Source: Alphaproteobacteria bacterium HGW-Alphaproteobacteria-14 (GTDB lineage: Bacteria > Pseudomonadota > Alphaproteobacteria > Sphingomonadales > Sphingomonadaceae). From it: 64,000 nucleotides of DNA. The DNA lies in assembly GCA_002842925.1 (NCBI GenBank), contig PHEL01000001.1:6691-70690 (forward strand), read 5' to 3'. Shown here piece by piece: positions 143 through 13,966 of this stretch. Position 1 is the stretch's first letter; every line of letters starts with the position of its first letter. Position numbers and translations under genes: made by a program. The notes below the pieces were generated by a model. The model saw only the letters and a list, made by a program, of their open reading frames with translations. It made no database searches and was not told the DNA's origin.

Positions 143-544
143 TTAGCGGCCAGCACCGCTCCCGGCGAGCACCTCGATCACTCTGCACTCGGCAACAGTG
201 CCGTGTTTGCAACTCTCGACCACTTTGGTGAGCTCTTTTCGAAGTGCTCTGAGATCGGTCAGCTTTGCTTCAACTTCGCGCAATTGGGCGCTGGCGATCT
301 TGTCGACCGTTTCACAAGGCTGGTCGGGATCATCCGCCATCGCCATGAGCTCCTTTACCTGAGACATCGAAAAGCCAAGTTTGCGCGAACGCTTTATGAA
401 GCGGAGGCGCGAAATTTCGTCCGGCCCGTAATCGCGATAATTGGACGATGTCCTCGGCGGCGGAGGCAGCAGCCCCTCCCTCTCGTAATAGCGGATGGTT
501 TCGGACTTGGTGCCAGTCGCACGTCCTGCTTCGCCAATTCTCAT
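143..544 (-). CDS. MerR-family divalent-metal regulator (CadR/PbrR/ZntR-like)
   Basis: MRIGEAGRATGTKSETIRYYEREGLL HTH, RLRFIKRSRKLGFS, three Cys (QPCETV, SCKHGTVAEC). Start moved to the ATG at 544. Confidence 0.9.
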   Translation of the reverse strand: MRIGEAGRATGTKSETIRYYEREGLLPPPPRTSSNYRDYGPDEISRLRFIKRSRKLGFSMSQVKELMAMADDPDQPCETVDKIASAQLREVEAKLTDLRALRKELTKVVESCKHGTVAECRVIEVLAGSGAGR

Positions 545-569
545 CTGCTCTCCGATACAGAAAACTTGC

Positions 570-591
570 TTGATCTTGTAGTTACTACAAG
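570..591 (+). promoter_or_regulatory. MerR-type operator/promoter facing the czc operon
   Basis: TTGATC (-35-like, 570-575) overlaps the inverted repeat CTTGTAG-TTA-CTACAAG (575-591), the typical CadR/PbrR operator form. The -10 is poor. Confidence 0.8.
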
Positions 592-694
592 GTGCAGGGC
601 TTGTCATCAGGACAGGAATTGAGCCCGACCAGCCTCGGAAATGATTACCCGAACGCTGGTCAAGCCGATGGTCTGTCAAGCACAGGAGTTACAG

Positions 695-1075
695 ATGATG
701 CGGGCAAATACCCGAGTTGAAGAGCTGCTACGACAAGAACGTGAGGCGTTCGGTGAGGCCCGACGAATAGGCGAGGTCTCAGCGGCCTGGGCCGCGCTGG
801 AACGCGAGCACATTATTGGCCAGCCCTACCTTGCGGCGCACTTTCGCTGCCACTTGTCGATGCTGGGCTTCGCTATCGAGCTGCGCGACTGGCGGGAACT
901 GCGCGGACAAATTCTCCGGCTGCTGCTCGCGCCACTGGGCAATGCATCGGGACGCTTGCCGATCGGCAATACTGGTCGCTCCAATGTCAGCGCCTTTGCA
1001 CCGATGGAAATCCCCGCCGATCTATCAGCAAAAATTGAAAACACGTCGCCCGATGCTGGAGAGAACTTACAATGA
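695..1075 (+). CDS. DUF3703 family protein
   Basis: AWAALEREHIIGQ...HFRCHLSML...RELRGQILRLLLAPLG...GRLPIGNTGRSNVSAFAPMEIP matches the family pattern; RBS CAGGAG before the ATG at 695. Confidence 0.8.
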   Translation: MMRANTRVEELLRQEREAFGEARRIGEVSAAWAALEREHIIGQPYLAAHFRCHLSMLGFAIELRDWRELRGQILRLLLAPLGNASGRLPIGNTGRSNVSAFAPMEIPADLSAKIENTSPDAGENLQ

Positions 1076-1737
1076 GTGTCCTGAGCAGTGCGGAGACGAG
1101 GAAACTCTATAACCGGATCGCGGGGGTCTATGATCTCTGCCTCAAGGCCTTCAATGCGGTGGGAACCAACCGATGGCGCTCGCAGCTTGTAGCGAATTTG
1201 CAGATCAGGCCCGGCGACCATGTCATCGACCTGTGCGCGGGAACAGGTGCGAACCTTCCCTATCTTGCAGAGAAACTTGGAGCCCAAGGTAAGCTCACTC
1301 TCGTCGATCTTTCGGAAGGGATGCTAACCAAGGCAAAAGAGCGCGCGGAGAGGCTGGGCCTGACGAACGTCGAAATCGTCCAGATGGATGTGAACGAGTT
1401 TCGATTTCCGCCAAAAGTCGATGCCATTATCAGCACGTTTGGGCTAGAAATGGTGCCCGCTTACCCGGCCATCATCGAGCGGGCCGTTGCTTCGCTGCGG
1501 CCGGACGGGCGCATCGGTCTGCTGGGACTGAAGCATCCCGAAAATTGGCCACTATGGGTGCTGCAAATCGGCATCTTGGTGACAAAGCCCTTCGGCGTTT
1601 CCCGCGACTACGAGGACTTCAAACCGTGGGTCGCTGCCCGAAACGCGGCCAGCCAAGTATGGTTTGAAGAACACCTCACAGGATCTGCCTATTCCTTTGT
1701 CGGGCAGCGCAAAGCGACATTGGCCGAGAAACAATAA
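1072..1737 (+). CDS. Class I SAM-dependent methyltransferase (UbiE/PmtA-like)
   Basis: Motif I VIDLCAGTG, then LVDLSEGML and VQMDV; ATGA overlap with the upstream gene. Confidence 0.85.
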   Translation: MSVLSSAETRKLYNRIAGVYDLCLKAFNAVGTNRWRSQLVANLQIRPGDHVIDLCAGTGANLPYLAEKLGAQGKLTLVDLSEGMLTKAKERAERLGLTNVEIVQMDVNEFRFPPKVDAIISTFGLEMVPAYPAIIERAVASLRPDGRIGLLGLKHPENWPLWVLQIGILVTKPFGVSRDYEDFKPWVAARNAASQVWFEEHLTGSAYSFVGQRKATLAEKQ

Positions 1738-1775
1738 TGCTTTTAACTTCAAGCCTTCTTCGCTACTCGCCCGCC

Positions 1776-2096
1776 ATGCGTTTTGTTTTCACTCTCTTCG
1801 CCGCGATGGCGATACTGGTTTCCGGCATCCATGCCGGGCCATCGGAGGCGCATGAAAATGATCCCACGCATGCCAGCGAGCATCACGCCCAAAGTGACGA
1901 TGACGATAGCGGTTCGGAAGACCCAACCAAAGGTGACCAGCACGGCTGCCATCACCATTGTCCAAGTGCCGCCGCGTCCAATCTCGGCAAACTGACATCG
2001 ACGCACGACTTTGCTAGCGCCCGTCTGGTGCCGTCGAAGACGTTCCCGCTTGGCTCAACAACGCGTGCACCGCCACTAACCCCTCCCAAGGCCTAA
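1776..2096 (+). CDS. CzcI/DUF2946-like secreted His/Cys-rich protein with C-terminal RAPP motif
   Basis: Signal peptide MRFVFTLFAAMAILVSGIHA, His/Asp-rich linker, HGCHHHC, and C-terminus TTRAPPLTPPKA; directly upstream of czcC. Confidence 0.75.
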   Translation: MRFVFTLFAAMAILVSGIHAGPSEAHENDPTHASEHHAQSDDDDSGSEDPTKGDQHGCHHHCPSAAASNLGKLTSTHDFASARLVPSKTFPLGSTTRAPPLTPPKA

Positions 2097-2159
2097 TTGT
2101 TCGCACCGCGCGCGGCCTGATCGCGCGCTCTGAAGCAATTTGCCAAGGGATGATTCCCC

Positions 2160-3388
2160 ATGAAATCGATAATTTGCGCTTCCCTGCTTGCCGGGGTCGC
2201 GGGGCTGTGGCCCGCAACACTTGCGGCGCAACAGCTGACACTTGACGAAGCGGTCGACAGGGCCGTCGCCTCCGCTCCTGAAATGGTCGCAGGACAGGCG
2301 ACAGTCGATGCCGCCCGCGCCGAAATCCGCCAGGCCGACGTGCGCCCCAACCCCACTGTGTCGGTCGAGGCCGAAAATTTCGTCGGCAGCGGTGGGTTCA
2401 GCGTGCTGGAACAACCTGAAGTCACAGTGACCTATGAGCAGCGCATCGAGCGCGGCGGCAAGCGCGAAGCCAGGCTGGGATACGCGTCGCGCGGCCTCGA
2501 CCTTGCTCAGGCAGAAGCTCGCCTGGCGCGGCTGGAGCTGGCGCAGCAAGTGCAGCGCGCCTTCATCGACATTCAAATTGCTGACCAAATGGTCTGGATA
2601 GCCGAGCGTCGGCTCGAGACGGAACGCGAAATGCAAACGGAAGCCCTGCGCCGCGTTCGCGGTTACCGAGACCCTCTGTTTGTCGAAACGCAGGCTGCAG
2701 CGCGTGTCACTTCGGCTGAACTCGCGCTTGAACAGGCTGAGGCCCGATCAGCCGCCGCCCGCAATCTGCTCGCCTCTTTCTGGGGCGGAGAGGGTGGCGG
2801 GCTTGAGGTGTCAGATGGCATAGAGAGACTGGCCAGCTTGCAAGGCGAACTGGCGCAGGCTGATGCGAATGTTCGCGAGGCAGCCGTAGCGCAAGCCAGC
2901 GCGGAAGTGGTGCTTGAGCAATCACGCGCCACTCAGGATTACACGATCGGCGGCGGCGTCCGTTTTCTGCGGGAAACCAACGATGTCGCTCTTGTCGCAG
3001 GCATTTCCATCCCGCTGGGCCGGTTCGATCGCAATGAAGGCAATATCGACCGTGCGCGCGCTGAACGTCGGCGGTTGGAGGCCGAAGCGGAAGCCGACCG
3101 CCTCGCGCGATTGCGCCGACTGGCGGCTTTGCGAGCCGAAGCCAGCGCTGCTGCGAGACGGGCAGATGGGCTGATGCATCAAGTCTATCCGCAAGCTGTC
3201 CGGACCCTTGAGCAGGTCCGCGAAGGCTACAATCGCGGAGGCTTCCGCTTTTCTGATGTCCAGGACGCCGCTGACACGATCATCCAAGTCCAGCAACAAT
3301 GGGCCGATGCGATGACGATGTTCCGCGACGCCCAATCCGAAATCGATCGACTGACCGGCCGCTTTGACGTGGCTGCGGAGACTCTCCC

Positions 3389-3392
<4 letters not shown>
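2160..3392 (+). CDS. czcC: TolC-family outer-membrane factor of a heavy-metal RND system
   Basis: Signal peptide, LTLDEAV...P, ADVRPNPTVSV, GISIPLGRFDRNEG; first gene of the C-B-A order. Confidence 0.88.
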
Positions 3393-8687
<5,295 letters not shown>

Positions 8688-8722: not shown

Positions 8723-9649
8723 TTATTCCATCGCCATCGGTGACATCATCCCAAGAACCGCAACCAGCCCAACCACGCCAACCGCCAGTCCAAACTCGCC
8801 GGCAAGACTGCGGCGCAAAGCTGCCAGCGAAGCGGGGCTATCATTGGCTTGGCTATTATTTGGCGAAGCTTCGCGCCGCCCGATCCGGGCATTGTGCGCC
8901 CCGAAGGCGAGCATGCCGCAGACCAGCACCAGCTTTCCTGCCAGCAAAATGCCATAATCGGTCGTCAGGACTGCAGCACTGTTCGTGATCCCAAAGATCA
9001 GTTGGACATTGGCCAGACCTGTAATGGCAACGACCGATACCAGCGTGATCCCCAGCGGCGCAAATCGGTGCATCACGCCCAGCAGGTTCCGCGCCTGAGC
9101 GTCATCGACTCGCCGATGCGCCCTGATGACAAGATGGAGAAACCAGCCGATGGCCCCCAGCCACAACCCGGCTGCAAGCAAATGCAGCCCATCATTGAGG
9201 CGATGAAACAGCCCCAATCCGCCCTCCGTCGCGGCGGCATGTCCGCTCCATGCGAGCGTGATGAGTGCGGAAGCGTAACACAGGGCAGCGATGGGCAACG
9301 CTGACGCCAGACGGTTGCGCAGCAAAAGTGCAATCAGGCCTCCTCCGAGCAGTGCCGCGCGAAAAAGGAAAGCCCAACCCAGATCGGTGCCAAAGATCAT
9401 CGTTTCGACCATCGGCCCTTCGAGCGCGGCGAGTGGCTGGCCCATCATCGCAGCGATCGAAGTCAGCATCAGGACGAGCGACACCAACGGTGCCAACACC
9501 GCACCCACCATCGCCACGGCAAAACCGTTTCCCCACTGCTGCAAATTCAGCTCGCGCAGGCCAATCACGCGGAACGCTGTCCACCCGAACAAGCCAAGCA
9601 GCAGTGCATAATGTAGAAACCGCAATCCCGGCTCGAGCCAGTCCTCCAT
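8723..9649 (-). CDS. copD: Copper resistance inner-membrane protein
   Basis: Multiple TM segments, AWSGHAAA, HLLAAGLWLG, TDYGILLAGKL; follows copC. Confidence 0.9.
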   Translation of the reverse strand: MEDWLEPGLRFLHYALLLGLFGWTAFRVIGLRELNLQQWGNGFAVAMVGAVLAPLVSLVLMLTSIAAMMGQPLAALEGPMVETMIFGTDLGWAFLFRAALLGGGLIALLLRNRLASALPIAALCYASALITLAWSGHAAATEGGLGLFHRLNDGLHLLAAGLWLGAIGWFLHLVIRAHRRVDDAQARNLLGVMHRFAPLGITLVSVVAITGLANVQLIFGITNSAAVLTTDYGILLAGKLVLVCGMLAFGAHNARIGRREASPNNSQANDSPASLAALRRSLAGEFGLAVGVVGLVAVLGMMSPMAME

Positions 9650-9656
9650 AAAGCGG

Positions 9657-10052
9657 TCAGCTGACGGTGAAGTTCACGGTGCCCGTCATCCGGTGCCCGT
9701 CGGCGCCGGCGGCCTGCCAGCGCACTTCATAGGTGCCAACACGCAAGGCTTGGCGCAGGTTGAGCGTCAAGGTCCGATTGCTATTCGACCAGGCGGTGGT
9801 GAAATTTCTGATCGTCATTTCGCCGTGGTTCGGCATGCCGGGCATTGCGGTCATGACGATGCTCGCAGCGGCGGTCGGCGGCAGTAGAGCCTCGCTATAC
9901 GTGATCGTTATAGAGCGCGGCCGCGCGACCGTTGCGCCTTCGGCTGGCGTTGACGCGGTGACGCGCGCGTGAGCGAATGCGGCAGTTGGCACGGCAGCCG
10001 ATAACAGGGCGAGGCTCATAGCGCCTATCGGGAGGATTTTGCGGAAATTCAT
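9657..10052 (-). CDS. copC: Periplasmic copper-binding protein
   Basis: Signal ending AFA-H, HARVTASTPAEG, Met-rich MTAMPGMPNHGEM, GADGHRMTG. Start moved to 10052. Confidence 0.92.
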   Translation of the reverse strand: MNFRKILPIGAMSLALLSAAVPTAAFAHARVTASTPAEGATVARPRSITITYSEALLPPTAAASIVMTAMPGMPNHGEMTIRNFTTAWSNSNRTLTLNLRQALRVGTYEVRWQAAGADGHRMTGTVNFTVS

Positions 10053-10084
10053 AGTGGTGTCCTTTGGGGGATGGAGTGAATATT

Positions 10085-11155
10085 TCAGAACCAGAAGCGA
10101 ATGCCGACGACGTAATTTGTCACGCTGGGATCTTCGCCCCGCCACCGCGCGAAATCGGCGCTGCCGCCGACGCGCCAGCTCTGCTCGATGCCGACATAGG
10201 GCGCGAATTCGCGAATGATTTCGTAGCGCAAGCGCAGGCCCACCTCGACCTTGTCGATACCTGCTCCAATGCCGAGCTCAGCCACATCTTGCGCCGACAG
10301 ACTGATTTCCCCGCGAGGCTGGAGGATCAGCCGCTGTGTAATGCGCTGATCAAGTTCGGCTTCGATCCGCGCAGTGATATCGCCGCGATGCGAGGCGAAC
10401 AGCGCGGCATCGACCTCGAACATATAGGGCGCGAGGCCCTGCACGCCGACAACCGCGTAGGTCGTGTCGGGTCCAGCTACATCCTGCCGCACGCCTGCCT
10501 GCACATCCCAGAAGGGCGCAATGGCACGCGAATAGAGCGCCTGAAACTCGGCATCCTCAATCGCTTCACCAAAACTGCCTTCGCCTTCAGTCTTAAACCA
10601 GAACCTCTCGGTCGTGCCGCCGTAATAGCCCTGCACATCCCACAGATAGCCGTCAGCCCCATCGCGGAATTGAACCTCGGCGCGGTCGGCCTGAAACCAG
10701 AAAACCGGGAAATCGCCGTGGGTTTGCTGCAATTCGCGCCGTGATGCCCGCATGGCATCAGCGCCCCAGATCGCATCGGCAGCGCGTGGCGGACCGCTCC
10801 CCGCCTCGGGCGGCGGCGGGGTTTCCATTGTGGGGCCGGGTGAAACCGAGGCCGTGCCATCGCCATCGGCCATTGCACCATGATCCATTGCGCCATGGTC
10901 CATAGCCGAATGGTCCATACCATCCATCGCGTCTTGTTGGGCTGGCGCAGTCTCAGCCGCCGCAGGCATGTCGTGGCCCGCATGCGGATGGACGGGTGGC
11001 GGGGTGACGGGTGGCGGGGTGACGGGCGAAGGCTCGGGAGCAGGCATAGCATGACCATCATGTCCGGCATGCTCGTCCTGGCTTTGCGCGAATGCCGGGG
11101 CAATGAGCGCAGACGCGGCAAGCATCGCCAGCGCGAAAGTAGCGATCCGGTTCAC
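10085..11155 (-). CDS. copB: Outer-membrane copper resistance protein B
   Basis: MDHSAMDHGAMDHGAM region, WDVQGYYGG, FWDVQAGVRQD, GLRLRYEIIREFAPYVG, terminal GIRFWF. Confidence 0.93.
   Translation of the reverse strand: MNRIATFALAMLAASALIAPAFAQSQDEHAGHDGHAMPAPEPSPVTPPPVTPPPVHPHAGHDMPAAAETAPAQQDAMDGMDHSAMDHGAMDHGAMADGDGTASVSPGPTMETPPPPEAGSGPPRAADAIWGADAMRASRRELQQTHGDFPVFWFQADRAEVQFRDGADGYLWDVQGYYGGTTERFWFKTEGEGSFGEAIEDAEFQALYSRAIAPFWDVQAGVRQDVAGPDTTYAVVGVQGLAPYMFEVDAALFASHRGDITARIEAELDQRITQRLILQPRGEISLSAQDVAELGIGAGIDKVEVGLRLRYEIIREFAPYVGIEQSWRVGGSADFARWRGEDPSVTNYVVGIRFWF
10991..11026. repeat. 15-bp perfect tandem repeat (about 2.4 copies) in copB, encoding VTPPP
   Basis: GACGGGTGGCGGGGT at 10991 and 11006, plus GACGGG at 11021. 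Confidence 0.9.
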
Positions 11156-13038
11156 GACGCTGCCTCAGGGCCGACCACGGTCACGGTCTGCATCATTCCG
11201 CCATGCATGTGATACATCAAATGGCAGTGGAAGGCCCAGTCTCCGGGCTCATTGGCGGTCAGGTCAAACTGCGCGCTTGCGCCCGGTTGAACGATGACGA
11301 CATTCTTGCGCGGTTGATGCGCAGCGCTTTCGCCATTCACCAGCTCGAAGAACATGCCGTGCAAATGGATGGGGTGCGCCATCATCGTGTTGTTGATGAG
11401 TTTCACCCGAACGCGTTCGTTCCAGGCAAAACGGATCGGCACATCGCTGACGGCCGAATACATCCGACCGTCGAACGACCACATATAGCGTTCCATATTG
11501 CCGGTGAGGTGCAGCTCAAGCAGCCGTGACGGCTCGCGCGAGACGATATTGGGCTCGAGGGCGGAAAGCATACGGTAGTTTAGCACCCGGTGCGGCACAT
11601 CGCGCAGCCCAAGGCCCGGATCGCCCATTTTGTCGACCGGTGCCATCGATACCATGTCGATGCCAGGGCCGATCGCGACATCGGGCGGCAACAGCGACGT
11701 ATCTCGCATGTTCATGCCCTCCATGCTCATGCCGCCCATCGCCATCCCGGCCATTGCGTCATCGGCCGCAGCTGCTGGCGCAGAATGGCCCATGGCCGAG
11801 TGATCCATGGCCGCCGCTCCCGCACCGGCAGCGCCGACTGGCGCAGCACTATCGGCAGGTGCGCTATGGTCCATGCCGCTGTGGTCCATACCCTCGGAAC
11901 CGTGGTTCATGCCCATGTCGCCCATCGTCAGCAGCGGCGGATCGCGCAGCGCTGGCACAGCCGCACGCGCGCCCGGACGGCTCGCCAGCGTGGCGAGCGC
12001 CATGCCCGATCGGTCCATCGACTCGGCCACGATCGAATAGGCCTCGGCGCTGCCCGCCGTGACAATTACATCATAGGTCTCGGCGGTGCCGATCTGGAAC
12101 TCGTCAACCTCGACGGGCCGGACATTTTGCCCGTCTGCGGCGATCACTGTCATCGGCAGGCCAGGAATTCGGACGTTGAAGAAGCTCTGCGCTGACCCGT
12201 TTATGATCCGCAACCGGATGCGTTCACCGGCGCGGAAAAGATATTCCATGCCCTCGGTCGGCCCGCGTCCATTGGCAAGGAAGGTGTAGGTCGGCGAACC
12301 GATATCCATGATATCGGTCGGCATCATTCGCATTTGCGCCCACATCCGGCGCTCTTCACTGGACATCGGATAGTCGTCGGTCCAGGTGTTTTGCTGGCGG
12401 TTGAAATAACCTTCGCCAGTGCGGAGGCGGTTCATGATGAAATGCGGATCGTGTGTGGTGAAGTCGCTCAGAAGCAGGATATAGTCGCGGTCATAAGCGA
12501 CCGGCTCCGCGCCTGCAGGGTCGATGATCATGGGACCATAGTGACCCGACTGCTCCTGAAGACCCGAATGGCTGTGATACCAATAGGTGCCCGCCTGGCG
12601 GACTGGGAACTGGTAAGCGAAAGTTTCATGCGGCTTGATGCCGGGAAAGCTGATGCCCGGCACACCATCCATCTGGAACGGCAAGAGCAGACCATGCCAG
12701 TGGATCGAGGTATCCGCATCGAGGTGGTTGGTAACGTTCAGGCGGACATTCTGACCCTCGCGCAGGCGGATAAGCGGACCCGGCACGCTGCCGTTCACGG
12801 CAATGCCGGGGCCTCGCCGACCCTCGACAATGCGGTGGCCGCTGCCGACAGTTAGGTCGATGACATCACCGCGCAGTTCGCCAAATCCCGCCGGGATTTG
12901 CGGTCCACCACGTCCGTGGCTGCCGCCGTGGACACTATGGCCCTGCGCCCAAGCAGGGATCGCGAGCATGGATGCACCGACACCCAAACCGCCCAAAAGA
13001 GTCCTTCGCGAAACTTGATTCGTCATTGTCTTGCTCAT
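11152..13038 (-). CDS. copA: Tat-exported multicopper oxidase (CopA/PcoA)
   Basis: SRRTLL Tat motif; copper ligands IHWHG, WYHSH, HPIHLHG, HCHLMYHM; Met/His-rich insert. Confidence 0.96.
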   Translation of the reverse strand: MSKTMTNQVSRRTLLGGLGVGASMLAIPAWAQGHSVHGGSHGRGGPQIPAGFGELRGDVIDLTVGSGHRIVEGRRGPGIAVNGSVPGPLIRLREGQNVRLNVTNHLDADTSIHWHGLLLPFQMDGVPGISFPGIKPHETFAYQFPVRQAGTYWYHSHSGLQEQSGHYGPMIIDPAGAEPVAYDRDYILLLSDFTTHDPHFIMNRLRTGEGYFNRQQNTWTDDYPMSSEERRMWAQMRMMPTDIMDIGSPTYTFLANGRGPTEGMEYLFRAGERIRLRIINGSAQSFFNVRIPGLPMTVIAADGQNVRPVEVDEFQIGTAETYDVIVTAGSAEAYSIVAESMDRSGMALATLASRPGARAAVPALRDPPLLTMGDMGMNHGSEGMDHSGMDHSAPADSAAPVGAAGAGAAAMDHSAMGHSAPAAAADDAMAGMAMGGMSMEGMNMRDTSLLPPDVAIGPGIDMVSMAPVDKMGDPGLGLRDVPHRVLNYRMLSALEPNIVSREPSRLLELHLTGNMERYMWSFDGRMYSAVSDVPIRFAWNERVRVKLINNTMMAHPIHLHGMFFELVNGESAAHQPRKNVVIVQPGASAQFDLTANEPGDWAFHCHLMYHMHGGMMQTVTVVGPEAAS

Positions 13039-13057
13039 CCTTTAGTAAGCTGATACT

Positions 13058-13074
13058 ATACCCCCCTATGGTAT
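13058..13074. promoter_or_regulatory. CsoR/RcnR-type operator between divergent copA and csoR
   Basis: ATACC-CCCCTAT-GGTAT: inverted repeat around a C-tract. Confidence 0.8.
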
Positions 13075-13095
13075 TGCAAGGGATAAGAGGAATCG

Positions 13096-13368
13096 ATGAC
13101 GAAAGACAAGACAGCCATTCTCAATCGGCTCAGCCGGATTGAGGGCCAGGTGCGCGGCGTGGGCCAGATGGTCGCGGACGAGCGCTATTGCATCGATATC
13201 CTGCATCAGGTGCAGGCCGTGAAAGCTGCCCTTTCAAAGGCAGAGAGTGAAATTCTGAAAGATCACGCGGCATGCTGCGTTTCCGAAGCGATCGCATCGG
13301 GCGATACGGCCGAGCAGCGCGTGAAGTTCAACGAGCTGATCGACCTGTTCGAGAAGGTCAAACGATGA
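13096..13368 (+). CDS. csoR: Copper-sensing repressor, CsoR family
   Basis: RLSRIEGQVRGV, YCIDILHQ, HAACCV (C-H-C ligand set). Confidence 0.93.
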   Translation: MTKDKTAILNRLSRIEGQVRGVGQMVADERYCIDILHQVQAVKAALSKAESEILKDHAACCVSEAIASGDTAEQRVKFNELIDLFEKVKR

Positions 13369-13460
13369 CCGCAGCCAAGACCGAAGCCAAGACCGTCACC
13401 CTTTACCGCATGGTGATGGCCCTGCGGATGCCGCTAGCGCCCATGGGAGATACGCAATGA
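13365..13460 (+). pseudogene. 31-codon in-frame deletion remnant of a glutaredoxin-MauE/DoxX-type gene
   Basis: MTAAKTEAKTVTLYRMVM joined directly to ALRMPLAPMGDTQ; ATGA-coupled to csoR and to DUF305. The two halves resemble the N- and C-termini of the gene usually found at this position (recalled, not searched). Confidence 0.6.
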
Positions 13461-13966
13461 CCTACACCCGTTTTCTCGCGATGATCGCAACCTCGACTGT
13501 TGTGATGTTCGGCCTGATGTATCTGAACACCTACGCGCTCGACCATATCTTCTACAGTCAGACGCGTACCTGGATGGCTGTCTATATGGGCGCTGTCATG
13601 GCGATCATCATGCTCGCCTTTATGTGGAAGATGTATGACGGAACATCCAAGAAGCTGACAATTGTCGGGGCATCACTGCTTGTTTTTGCAGGCTCGCTCT
13701 ATCTCGTCCGCAGTCAGGAGACGGTCGATGATGTGAGCTATATGCGGGCGATGATCCCGCACCATTCAATCGCAATCATGACCAGCGAGCGCGCGAAAAT
13801 CCGCGATCCACGCGTTCGTGCTTTGGCGGATGACATCATCGAGGCACAAGTCAGGGAAATTGCCGAGATGAAGCGGCTGATCGCCGATCTGGAGGCTCAG
13901 CCACTTCCCTCGGATGCCCCCATTTTGCCGGCGGTGCCAGTGCAAAGCACGGAAACGGGAAATTGA
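13457..13966 (+). CDS. DUF305 (CopM-like, ferritin-like) membrane-anchored protein
   Basis: Three N-terminal TM helices, then YMRAMIPHHSIAIMTS...IIEAQVREIAEM. Confidence 0.85.
   Translation: MTYTRFLAMIATSTVVMFGLMYLNTYALDHIFYSQTRTWMAVYMGAVMAIIMLAFMWKMYDGTSKKLTIVGASLLVFAGSLYLVRSQETVDDVSYMRAMIPHHSIAIMTSERAKIRDPRVRALADDIIEAQVREIAEMKRLIADLEAQPLPSDAPILPAVPVQSTETGN

Follow-up and report, generated by a model that had tools for sequence, protein, structure and literature searches.

In a window of 64,000 nucleotides (nt) from Alphaproteobacteria bacterium HGW-Alphaproteobacteria-14 (Sphingomonadaceae; contig PHEL01000001.1, positions 6,691 to 70,690 of the forward strand; all positions below are those of the window), a small open reading frame (ORF) for an exported, His/Cys-rich protein is located directly in front of a czcCBA-like metal efflux operon that ends with a gene for a cation diffusion facilitator (CDF). 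The reading that we prefer, with moderate confidence, is that this leader ORF of Sphingomonadales (Erythrobacter-like) encodes a cis-acting regulatory peptide of the CutF/CruR type for the czcCBA-CDF operon. A ribosome pause at an R-A-P-P motif near its C-terminus, set by metal and/or export, would open an mRNA helix that masks czcC's Shine-Dalgarno (SD) sequence.

The predicted product reads MLLTSSLLRYSPA-MRFVFTLFAAMAILVSGIHA-GPSEAHENDPTHASEHHAQSDDDDSGSEDPTKGDQHGCHHHCPS...LGSTTRAPPLTPPKA, i.e. a signal peptide is followed by an acidic/His-rich linker, the motif HHHC, a spacer of 37 residues and the sequence RAPP-L-T-PP-K-A directly before the stop codon. Six codons (LTPPKA) separate RAPP from the stop, and diprolyl motifs occupy the positions -8/-7 and -4/-3 from it. 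The ORF, the motif HGCHHHC and this RAPP (2064-2075) had been pointed out in a preliminary description of the same DNA and were all recovered. When all 64 kb were scanned in six frames for R[AG]PP within 15 codons of a stop codon, only the RAPP of the leader was returned. The start codon is ambiguous, with in-frame ATG codons at 1737 and 1776. ATG 1737 is favoured in the clade of the window because of its overlap with the upstream stop codon, and ATG 1776 agrees with the N-terminus of the wider family (MR...), the consensus of which is MRxxxxLLxxxAVLxCGLHxxxPAxAH. The n-region (MR), the hydrophobic h-region (FVFTLFAAMAILVSG), the AxA-like site (IHA/SEA) and a helix predicted by AlphaFold2 (AF2) at residues 12-32 all fit a Sec signal, which is probably cleaved after IHA or SEA. 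In the AF2 model, computed with an alignment of 99 sequences, this helix was the only confident element (predicted local distance difference test, pLDDT, about 91). The mature part showed no secondary structure (pLDDT 53-64; predicted template modelling score 0.30) and is predicted to be disordered, without a fold. Scans of the leader ORF against Pfam and NCBIfam matched no family.

A database of 5.8 billion proteins contained 16 close homologues at 47-96% identity; the source names throughout the family read 'hypothetical protein'. Twenty loci were gathered by scans of genomes and metagenomes and by look-up of the encoding contigs; the six loci derived from genomes all belong to Sphingomonadales (Erythrobacter, Alteraurantiacibacter, Rhizorhapis and Sphingobium). 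In every intact one of these loci the ORF lies 63-68 nt upstream of a gene for an outer-membrane factor (OEP) of 409-410 amino acids (aa), followed by CzcB and CzcA. The gap to czcC amounts to 63 nt in the window and to 57-68 nt across all intact related loci. The usual arrangement upstream is merR<->CDF-DUF3703, with the start of the ORF overlapping the stop codon of DUF3703. A chance ORF is ruled out by this conservation and synteny. A tblastn search of the leader against the PLSDB plasmids gave no match.

Among the close homologues the C-terminus L-x-S-T-T-R-A-P-P-L-x-P-P-K-x is near-invariant, compared to an identity of only about 50% over the remaining protein. When 1.84 billion representatives were searched with a profile, the family grew to 123 clusters. 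The members, mostly about 105 aa long, share a plan consisting of the signal peptide, a His-rich linker, HHC-P and L-x-S-x-x-x-A-P-P-[LIV]-[EQD]-P-P-x-A in front of the stop codon; in 115 of 117 representatives the second PP is followed by exactly two residues. H72, H74 and C75 are present in at least 90% of this wide family; the first Cys of HGCHHHC is not conserved. Members carrying QAPP, TAPP or VAPP are found upstream of OEP-CzcB-CzcA, too, at a distance of 57-66 nt.

The copy in a metagenome-assembled genome of Sphingobium (L006:3158-3861, contig coverage about 2x) is frameshifted or truncated in the signal-peptide region, which is probably an assembly error and not a pseudogene. The database homologues P0012, P0021, P0023 and P0078 are chimeric or carry artefactual ends (e.g. 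MRISDWSSDVCSSDL... and ...EERRVGKECVSRCRYWGG) and are unfit for family alignments.

The last 16 codons were tabulated in 15 distinct lineages of the near clade. The residues L, S, T, T, R, A, P, P and L are each encoded by 2-4 synonymous codons while the amino acid remains constant, which means selection at the level of the peptide. For the Arg of RAPP the codons are CGT (4), CGC (5), CGG (4) and CGA (1), with one CAG encoding Gln; Arg is hence kept in 14 of the 15 lineages by means of four different codons. The following PP-K is fixed in nucleotides (CCT in 15/15, CCC in 15/15 and AAG in 14/15 lineages), so that here it is the RNA that is under selection.

A further constraint concerns the distance between the metal motif and the proline motif. 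The Cys of HHC and the first Pro of APP are 37 residues apart in 126 of 134 relatives (34 of 36 with Arg, 92 of 98 without it), corresponding to C75 and P112 in the window protein. Within the spacer hardly any sequence conservation is seen, and the N-terminal linker ranges from 59 to 81, a variation of more than 20 residues. A chain of 37 residues has about the length of the ribosomal exit tunnel. The strict spacing, together with an AF2 model lacking a mature fold, argues for a function of the nascent chain, i.e. of a leader peptide, rather than of a folded periplasmic protein.

At the RNA level, RNAalifold predicted a long-range stem-loop conserved in 14 lineages. At its base UCCC 2084-2087 pairs with GGGA 2147-2150 of the SD sequence and GGC 2090-2092 pairs with GCC 2142-2144; in the middle 2095-2100 pairs with 2135-2140, with the stop codon of the leader within the stem; the apex is formed by a GC hairpin (2108-2115/2121-2128). 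This anti-SD UCCC sits inside the leader's own second PP codons, and the GGGA of the SD is invariant in the 14 lineages. The hairpin 2090-2144 has a folding energy of -30.4 kcal/mol (z = -2.3), which 4 of 200 shuffles equalled. Paired cells amounted to 94.3% compared to 31-49% with the partners slid, and the covariation score was 0.227 vs 0.180, with 0 of 500 shuffles reaching the observed score. Compensatory changes occur at two positions, namely UA<->CG (6 vs 6) and CG<->UA (9 vs 5).

Parts of this structure had been noticed before. The repeat AATTG 2095-2099/CAATT 2136-2140 enclosing GCGCGCG 2108-2114/CGCGCGC 2122-2128 is present as described. The mini-hairpin GGGA 2147-2150/TCCC 2155-2158 over the ribosome binding site (RBS) is real as well, but of the two alternative partners of the SD this second UCCC is the weaker one, and the stronger partner at 2084-2087 had been missed. 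The second UCCC is invariant in the equivalents of L001-L019, with varying loop sequences, and absent in four loci without Arg (L021-L024). It could serve as a fallback mask of the SD or as part of a two-state switch. The GC hairpin as an intrinsic terminator is ruled out, since there is no U-tract and the contigs of RNA-type runs described below read through it.

The consequences of a paused ribosome were modelled as the energy needed to open the RBS. With a narrow definition of the RBS (-14 to +12), a ribosome parked at RAPP and reaching +15 or more lowered this cost by 1.4-4.4 kcal/mol in 6 of 7 RAPP lineages, and from 8.9 to 5.9 kcal/mol in the window. These values indicate that the RNA architecture is compatible with stall-dependent unmasking, although the modelled effect is modest and depends on the definition.

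We propose the following course of events. A ribosome translating the leader would pause or arrest with Pro112 (CCG 2070-2072) in the P site and Pro113 (CCA 2073-2075) in the A site, a placement chosen by analogy with the toeprints of ApdA, ApdP and CruR. The leading edge of this ribosome (+15 to +18) would lie on UCCC 2084-2087 and the SD-masking helix would open. A second ribosome could then initiate on czcC, and czcB, czcA and the CDF gene would follow by coupling. Upon fast completion of the leader the helix would re-form, leaving czcC poorly translated and the untranslated RNA perhaps exposed to Rho. How long the pause lasts would be decided by the nascent chain outside the tunnel, through Zn, Co or Cd (or Cu) bound to the HHHC/His-rich segment, through the force with which Sec translocation pulls, or through both; as in CutF, a longer pause in the presence of metal would switch on the pump. 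Such a mechanism would constitute a post-transcriptional layer downstream of a MerR-type transcriptional control of the whole operon.

CutF of Rhodobacter capsulatus (Ozturk 2021, Ozturk 2023 and a preprint of 2025) is one of the known systems closest to this proposal. CutF-like proteins have been defined by a signal peptide, a length of <150 aa, PP within the last 15 residues and a downstream gene in the same orientation at <1000 nt, and 5,334 of them were sorted into 29 clusters with Cys, His or mixed motifs (Ozturk 2023, PMC9973294). OEP genes (CusC/CzcC/SilC) are their commonest downstream neighbours, at intergenic distances mostly <100 nt, and CzcI upstream of czcCBA was discussed in the same study (PMC9973294). 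With 106/119 aa, a signal peptide, PP near the end and a gap of 63 nt, the leader is CutF-like by these rules. Copper bound to the exported nascent CutF lengthens a C-terminal proline stall, which melts an SD-masking stem-loop (PMC9973294; bioRxiv 10.1101/2025.02.05.636593). Both systems have a short intergenic region in which a stem-loop, predicted in the case of the leader, covers the SD of the metal-detoxification gene that follows, and a logic in which metal prolongs the stall and turns the gene on suits an efflux pump. The differences concern the metal motif (CxxxC in CutF, HHHC-P in the leader), the position of the anti-SD, which only in the leader is part of its own last PP codons, and the metal itself, which is Cu for CutF and probably Zn/Co/Cd for the leader. 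Furthermore, stalling of CutF needs PPP and is relieved by elongation factor P (EF-P; bioRxiv 10.1101/2025.02.05.636593), whereas the RAPP of the leader belongs to a type of arrest refractory to EF-P (PMC12992588).

CruR of Bordetella pertussis (Bp2923, DUF2946; Roy 2022; arrest: Fujiwara 2025) is likewise encoded by a predicted-exported upstream ORF (uORF) with a Cys motif and a C-terminal RAPP near the stop codon. RAPP is required there in cis for downstream expression, within a metal-responsive post-transcriptional layer as we propose it for the leader, and R139A abolishes the arrest (PMC12992588). In CruR, metal motif and RAPP keep a conserved distance (45 +/- 2), which is functionally required (PMC9426467); 45 intervening residues there face 37 residues from the Cys to the P-site Pro in the leader. 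CruR differs from the leader in that its intergenic region of 162 nt is unstructured and acted on by Rho, whereas that of the leader (63 nt) is structured and masks the SD. The target of CruR is an importer, with a stall that metal relieves (off switch), whereas the leader precedes an efflux pump. The signal peptide of CruR is dispensable. With the DUF2946 profile (PF11162, gathering threshold 23.7 bits) the window ORF gave no hit at E<=1, and 25 of 99 relatives matched below the threshold, the best one with 22.1 bits vs 23.7. An hhalign comparison with 13 annotated DUF2946 proteins aligned only the last 19 residues with a probability of 36% (reversed control 3%). Global homology is not demonstrable, as the alignment is confined to these C-terminal 19 residues; DUF2946 and the leader have their architecture and C-terminal motif in common.

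Across proteomes RAPP/RGPP motifs show depletion, in contrast to an enrichment near the C-termini of small secreted proteins, and all 7 C-terminal RAPP/RGPP proteins of S. lividans tested, as well as CruR, arrest translation (Fujiwara 2025, PMC12992588). When ribosomes stall on ApdA, ApdP or CruR, the P site holds the third RAPP codon and the A site the fourth; in ApcA, ApdA and ApdP no other residue can take the place of the Arg (PMC12992588). The leader shows every feature of this class: it is <300 aa long and possesses a signal peptide, a RAPP 6 residues from the C-terminus and a downstream gene in the same orientation. Among the downstream classes in Fig. 4B of that study are the TolC family with 530 RAPP uORFs (486 of 531 with a signal peptide), the efflux RND (resistance-nodulation-division) adaptor with 620 and CusA/CzcA with 50, most of these uORFs having signal peptides (Fujiwara 2025, PMC12992588), and the distance from RAPP to the end of the leader falls within the range of -3 to -11 listed for the TolC and RND classes. 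These efflux classes are listed only, being neither discussed nor tested in the main text ('efflux' and 'czc' occur 0 times each), and the examples shown upstream of TolC differ from the leader in sequence. The signatures STTRAPPL and HHHCPSAAA were not found among the entries listed from the supplement of that study, which does not establish absence. The statement in the preliminary description that such control was not known for czc operons is outdated, as Ozturk 2023 (OEP neighbours, CzcI) and Fujiwara 2025 (Fig. 4B) precede it; the concept and the genomic association are already published. In the literature consulted we found no description of the Sphingomonadales leader family, its RNA design or its 37-residue spacing, and no tests of any efflux-associated member of the RAPP/CutF-like class.

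The leader had also been called CzcI-like. This holds for its position: CzcI of C. metallidurans pMOL30 (L025:25177-25524) is a small protein of 115 aa with a signal peptide and with His-rich and Cys motifs, encoded 75 nt upstream of czcC. Homology was rejected, since hhalign gave a probability of 13.6% over 12 residues within the signal peptide only. CzcI is without a diprolyl motif (also according to PMC9973294), whereas the leader has two. CzcI ends with ...SSLNARAPDRPQWQRLA, in which R-A-P-D is located 9 residues before the C-terminus and is preceded by S-S-L, like the L-x-S-x-x-R-A-P-P of the leader family. The second Cys of the CGVCH of CzcI is 40 residues upstream of the Pro of RAPD. 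This RAPD could be what is left of a degenerated arrest motif.

SecM, ApdA and ApdP resemble the leader in that an exported nascent chain carries an R-A-[GP]-P arrest core near its C-terminus, and in SecM the stalled ribosome opens an SD-masking stem-loop of the downstream gene, as proposed for the leader. In such monitoring substrates the downstream gene codes for a Sec or YidC component, the activity of which releases the arrest. The genes downstream of the leader encode OEP, CzcB, CzcA and a CDF transporter and no Sec or YidC component. As the downstream gene is a metal efflux pump, secretion capacity alone is unlikely to be the monitored signal.

Several results weigh against a RAPP-dependent, metal- or export-controlled pause. 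In the 117 representatives of the wider family the residue before APP is Q (39), R (24), T (13), S (9), P (8), I (7) or another one. Even near relatives vary, with QAPP (L005), RIPP (P0142), RAPL (P0020), SAPP and AAPP. The expectation that RAPP should be conserved at a fixed distance from the stop codon hence holds for the near clade (six codons in 14 of 15 lineages, L005 being the exception) but not for the wider family. In the RNA, changes on both sides are found in only 3 of 20 pairs, and the UCCC:GGGA pairs carry no covariation evidence because they are invariant. With a wider definition of the RBS, the modelled effect of the stall in the window is <1 kcal/mol (12.2 to 11.4), and a ribosome at the stop codon (12.2 to 7.3) exposes the RBS to at least the same degree as one parked at RAPP. 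The modelled probability of the SD being unpaired barely shifts on stalling, but is no useful read-out, since an SD that has been released can pair again with the second UCCC. In relatives without the Arg, the 3' end of the uORF masks the downstream SD just as in those with it, and the same architecture is equally that of ordinary translational coupling. Most RAPP peptides of S. lividans did not arrest translation in the E. coli PURE system; arrest by such peptides is dependent on the ribosome's species (PMC12992588). For the leader family we infer the arrest as well as its dependence on metal and on secretion.

The QAPP of L005 (6304-6351) corresponds to a single CGG-to-CAG transition in an Erythrobacter genome; the variants listed also comprise P0142, P0020, P0019 and P0022. 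The near relatives with QAPP, RIPP, RAPL, SAPP or AAPP keep the remainder intact, including CCT CCC AAG and the hairpin.

Since the Arg is irreplaceable in the known peptides yet variable here, a RAPP-type arrest cannot be the mechanism of the whole family. It may be specific for the clade, or may enhance a pause at xAPP..PP.

An explanation without any arrest is the main rival, though unlikely in our estimate. The ORF would encode an ordinary small periplasmic metal-binding protein, a positional analogue of CzcI acting as metallochaperone, buffer or regulator, plainly coupled to czcC, and the Arg would be incidental or cause a mild pause at most. The C-terminal xAPP-L-x-PP-x-A (often ending with -AA, -SA or -LA) would then be a docking or degradation tag of the mature protein combined with a C-rich anti-SD. 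The small proportion of Arg in the wider family, the conservation of Q itself in a large subclade (SFAQAPPVQPPAA), the masking of the SD irrespective of the Arg and the modelled terminating ribosome, which unmasks the RBS at least equally, all agree with it, and CzcI, at the same position, is cited as a proposed metal-sensing regulator protein in PMC9973294. What it hardly explains is a strict spacer of 37 unconserved residues beside a variable linker, which is typical of exit-tunnel mechanisms (CruR). The mature part has no predicted fold, the Arg is kept through four codons in the near clade, RAPP is strongly avoided in proteomes and all C-terminal RAPP/RGPP proteins tested arrest (PMC12992588).

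We further considered that the whole Sphingomonadales family (>120 clusters) might function as a 'tunnel-ruler' sensor, in which HHHC at the tunnel exit, 37 residues away from the peptidyl-transferase centre, would read Zn/Co/Cd while the ribosome stands on xAPP with its edge on the anti-SD in the following PP codons. Members without Arg (QAPP, TAPP or SAPP with a fixed second PP) would still stall, and the variation between R, Q and T would tune the gain. This extension of the preferred reading to all members appears rather doubtful to us.

Attenuation of the CruR type, which we rate as improbable, would mean that a ribosome stalled at RAPP shields a C-rich Rho utilization (rut) site at the 3' end of the ORF or keeps Rho away from RNA polymerase, and that after its release Rho can terminate transcription ahead of czcC or inside it; control would then consist mainly in transcriptional polarity rather than in unmasking of the SD. 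Among metal-responsive RAPP uORFs CruR has been studied best, an intrinsic terminator is absent, and a C>G bias extends over 1917-2097 (C 0.36-0.41, G 0.22-0.26), like the C>G bubble of cruR (PMC9426467). The intergenic region, however, comprises 63 nt (162 nt in cruR) and has a strong structure, which rut and termination regions usually lack, and the nucleotide conservation is aimed specifically at the SD and the anti-SD. The logic of CruR, in which metal relieves the stall and the gene is turned off, would have to be inverted to suit an efflux pump, and the RNA-type contigs cross the junction, which counts weakly. Rho polarity and masking of the SD are not mutually exclusive, and Rho could add to the preferred mechanism.

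Still less probable is an EF-P-sensitive diprolyl pause at APP and/or the second PP-K, like that of CutF with its PPP-dependent, EF-P-relieved stalling, adjusted by EF-P, metal and secretion, with the Arg only strengthening it in some clades: APP-[LIV]-[EQD]-PP is the part conserved family-wide, its two diprolyl motifs at fixed positions and always 2 residues before the stop, and in several lineages the RBS is freed by a modelled ribosome that pauses at the second PP or on the stop codon, but the second PP, being fixed in nucleotides, may be conserved because of the RNA alone, and RAPP arrest is refractory to EF-P (PMC12992588). Like Rho attenuation, such a pause could act together with the mechanism preferred here.

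The features of the operon are compiled in Table 1.

Table 1. Features of the leader ORF and of the metal efflux operon, with positions in the window
Feature	Position	Strand	Remarks
MerR-family metal-responsive regulator gene	143..679	-	Pfam MerR_1, MerR-DNA-bind, MerR; divergent from operon
Perfect 8-1-8 inverted repeat CTTGTAGT-T-ACTACAAG	575..591	none	repeat search; directly after TTGATC, a -35-like hexamer
DUF3703 gene	641..1075	+	Pfam PF12487, 123 bits; first cistron of operon
S-adenosylmethionine (SAM)-dependent methyltransferase gene	1072..1737	+	Pfam Methyltransf_25 and related families
Small exported His/Cys-rich leader ORF	1737..2096	+	119 aa from ATG 1737, 106 aa from ATG 1776; TAA 2094-2096
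Predicted Sec-type signal peptide coding region (MRFVFTLFAAMAILVSGIHA)	1776..1835	+	sequence, AF2 helix, family consensus
HGCHHHC motif	1941..1961	+	HHHC-P is the conserved core
R-A-P-P, CGT GCA CCG CCA	2064..2075	+	residues 110-113 of 119
Second PP-K-A codons CCT CCC AAG GCC	2082..2093	+	fixed at nucleotide level
Conserved long-range stem-loop (predicted)	2084..2150	+	RNAalifold, 14 lineages
czcC Shine-Dalgarno AAGGGA	2145..2150	+	9 nt before ATG 2160
Second UCCC right before AUG	2155..2158	+	alternative local SD partner; invariant in RAPP clade
czcC-like outer-membrane factor (OEP), 410 aa	2160..3392	+	Pfam OEP
czcB-like adaptor	3389-4630	+	related loci: CzcB_N/CzcB_C
czcA-like RND pump	4645-7773	+	related loci: ACR_tran
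CDF transporter gene	7770-8687	+	

A layer of MerR control had been assumed in the preliminary description, and this is borne out by the merR gene and the perfect 8-1-8 dyad at the head of the operon. The true start of merR is probably near 544 (MRIGEAG...), and the top NCBIfam matches of its product were CueR, CadR-PbrR, MerR and ZntR, all under the equivalog cut-offs. The dyad is likely the MerR-type operator together with the operon promoter. On the + strand between 450 and 2250, a scan for sigma-70 promoters with spacers of 16-18 nt gave no match, which is expected since a MerR-type promoter has a long spacer, and a terminator scan revealed no terminator-like site. The methyltransferase stop codon overlaps ATG 1737 of the leader (TAATG). 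The product of czcC matched the NCBIfam model of an IhpA-like divalent metal exporter subunit below the cut-off, and the starts of the czcB, czcA and CDF genes overlap or sit close together.

Contigs from RNA-flagged runs of relatives with 95-97% identity pass unbroken through the ORF, the hairpin and czcC (e.g. 1728-3510, 1815-2712 and 1809-2794); as the RNA flag is a guess and not on record, so that the runs may contain DNA, and as contigs cannot show absence, they fit co-transcription weakly. In three RNA-type runs, contigs of close relatives start at about 1793-1815, one of them right after an Illumina adapter, and the depth at 1346-1768 is near zero. This could reflect an internal 5' end or processing site in the leader ORF, or a different upstream gene in those strains.

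In most related loci the DUF3703 gene adjoins the small ORF upstream, often with overlapping stop and start codons; the DUF3703 protein of unknown function may be part of the same system as the leader. Downstream of the operon a copper island is located (8723-13966), comprising copD-, copC-, copB- and multicopper-oxidase copA-like genes on the minus strand, followed by genes for a CsoR/RcnR-like repressor (13096-13368) and a DUF305-like protein (13457-13966). Before the copA-like and DUF305 genes of the window no RAPP or CutF-like uORF was found; both gene classes are enriched for such uORFs elsewhere.

If the preferred reading is true, nascent-chain metal sensing, which so far concerns copper (CutF, CruR), would also include a His-rich leader that precedes an RND efflux pump of the Zn/Co/Cd type. 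Should the tunnel-ruler extension apply, the family would represent the first nascent-chain sensor of non-copper divalent cations for an RND pump and an Arg-independent relative of the RAPP arrest motif. The relatives with R, Q, T, S or I, having a constant spacing of 37 residues and an SD-masking RNA, form a natural experiment in which the parts played by Arg, diprolyl motifs, spacer and mRNA could be told apart, and the natural variants QAPP, RIPP, RAPL, SAPP and AAPP are ready-made mutants. For annotation, leader ORFs of this kind account for the conserved gap before czcC in the metal islands of Sphingomonadales.

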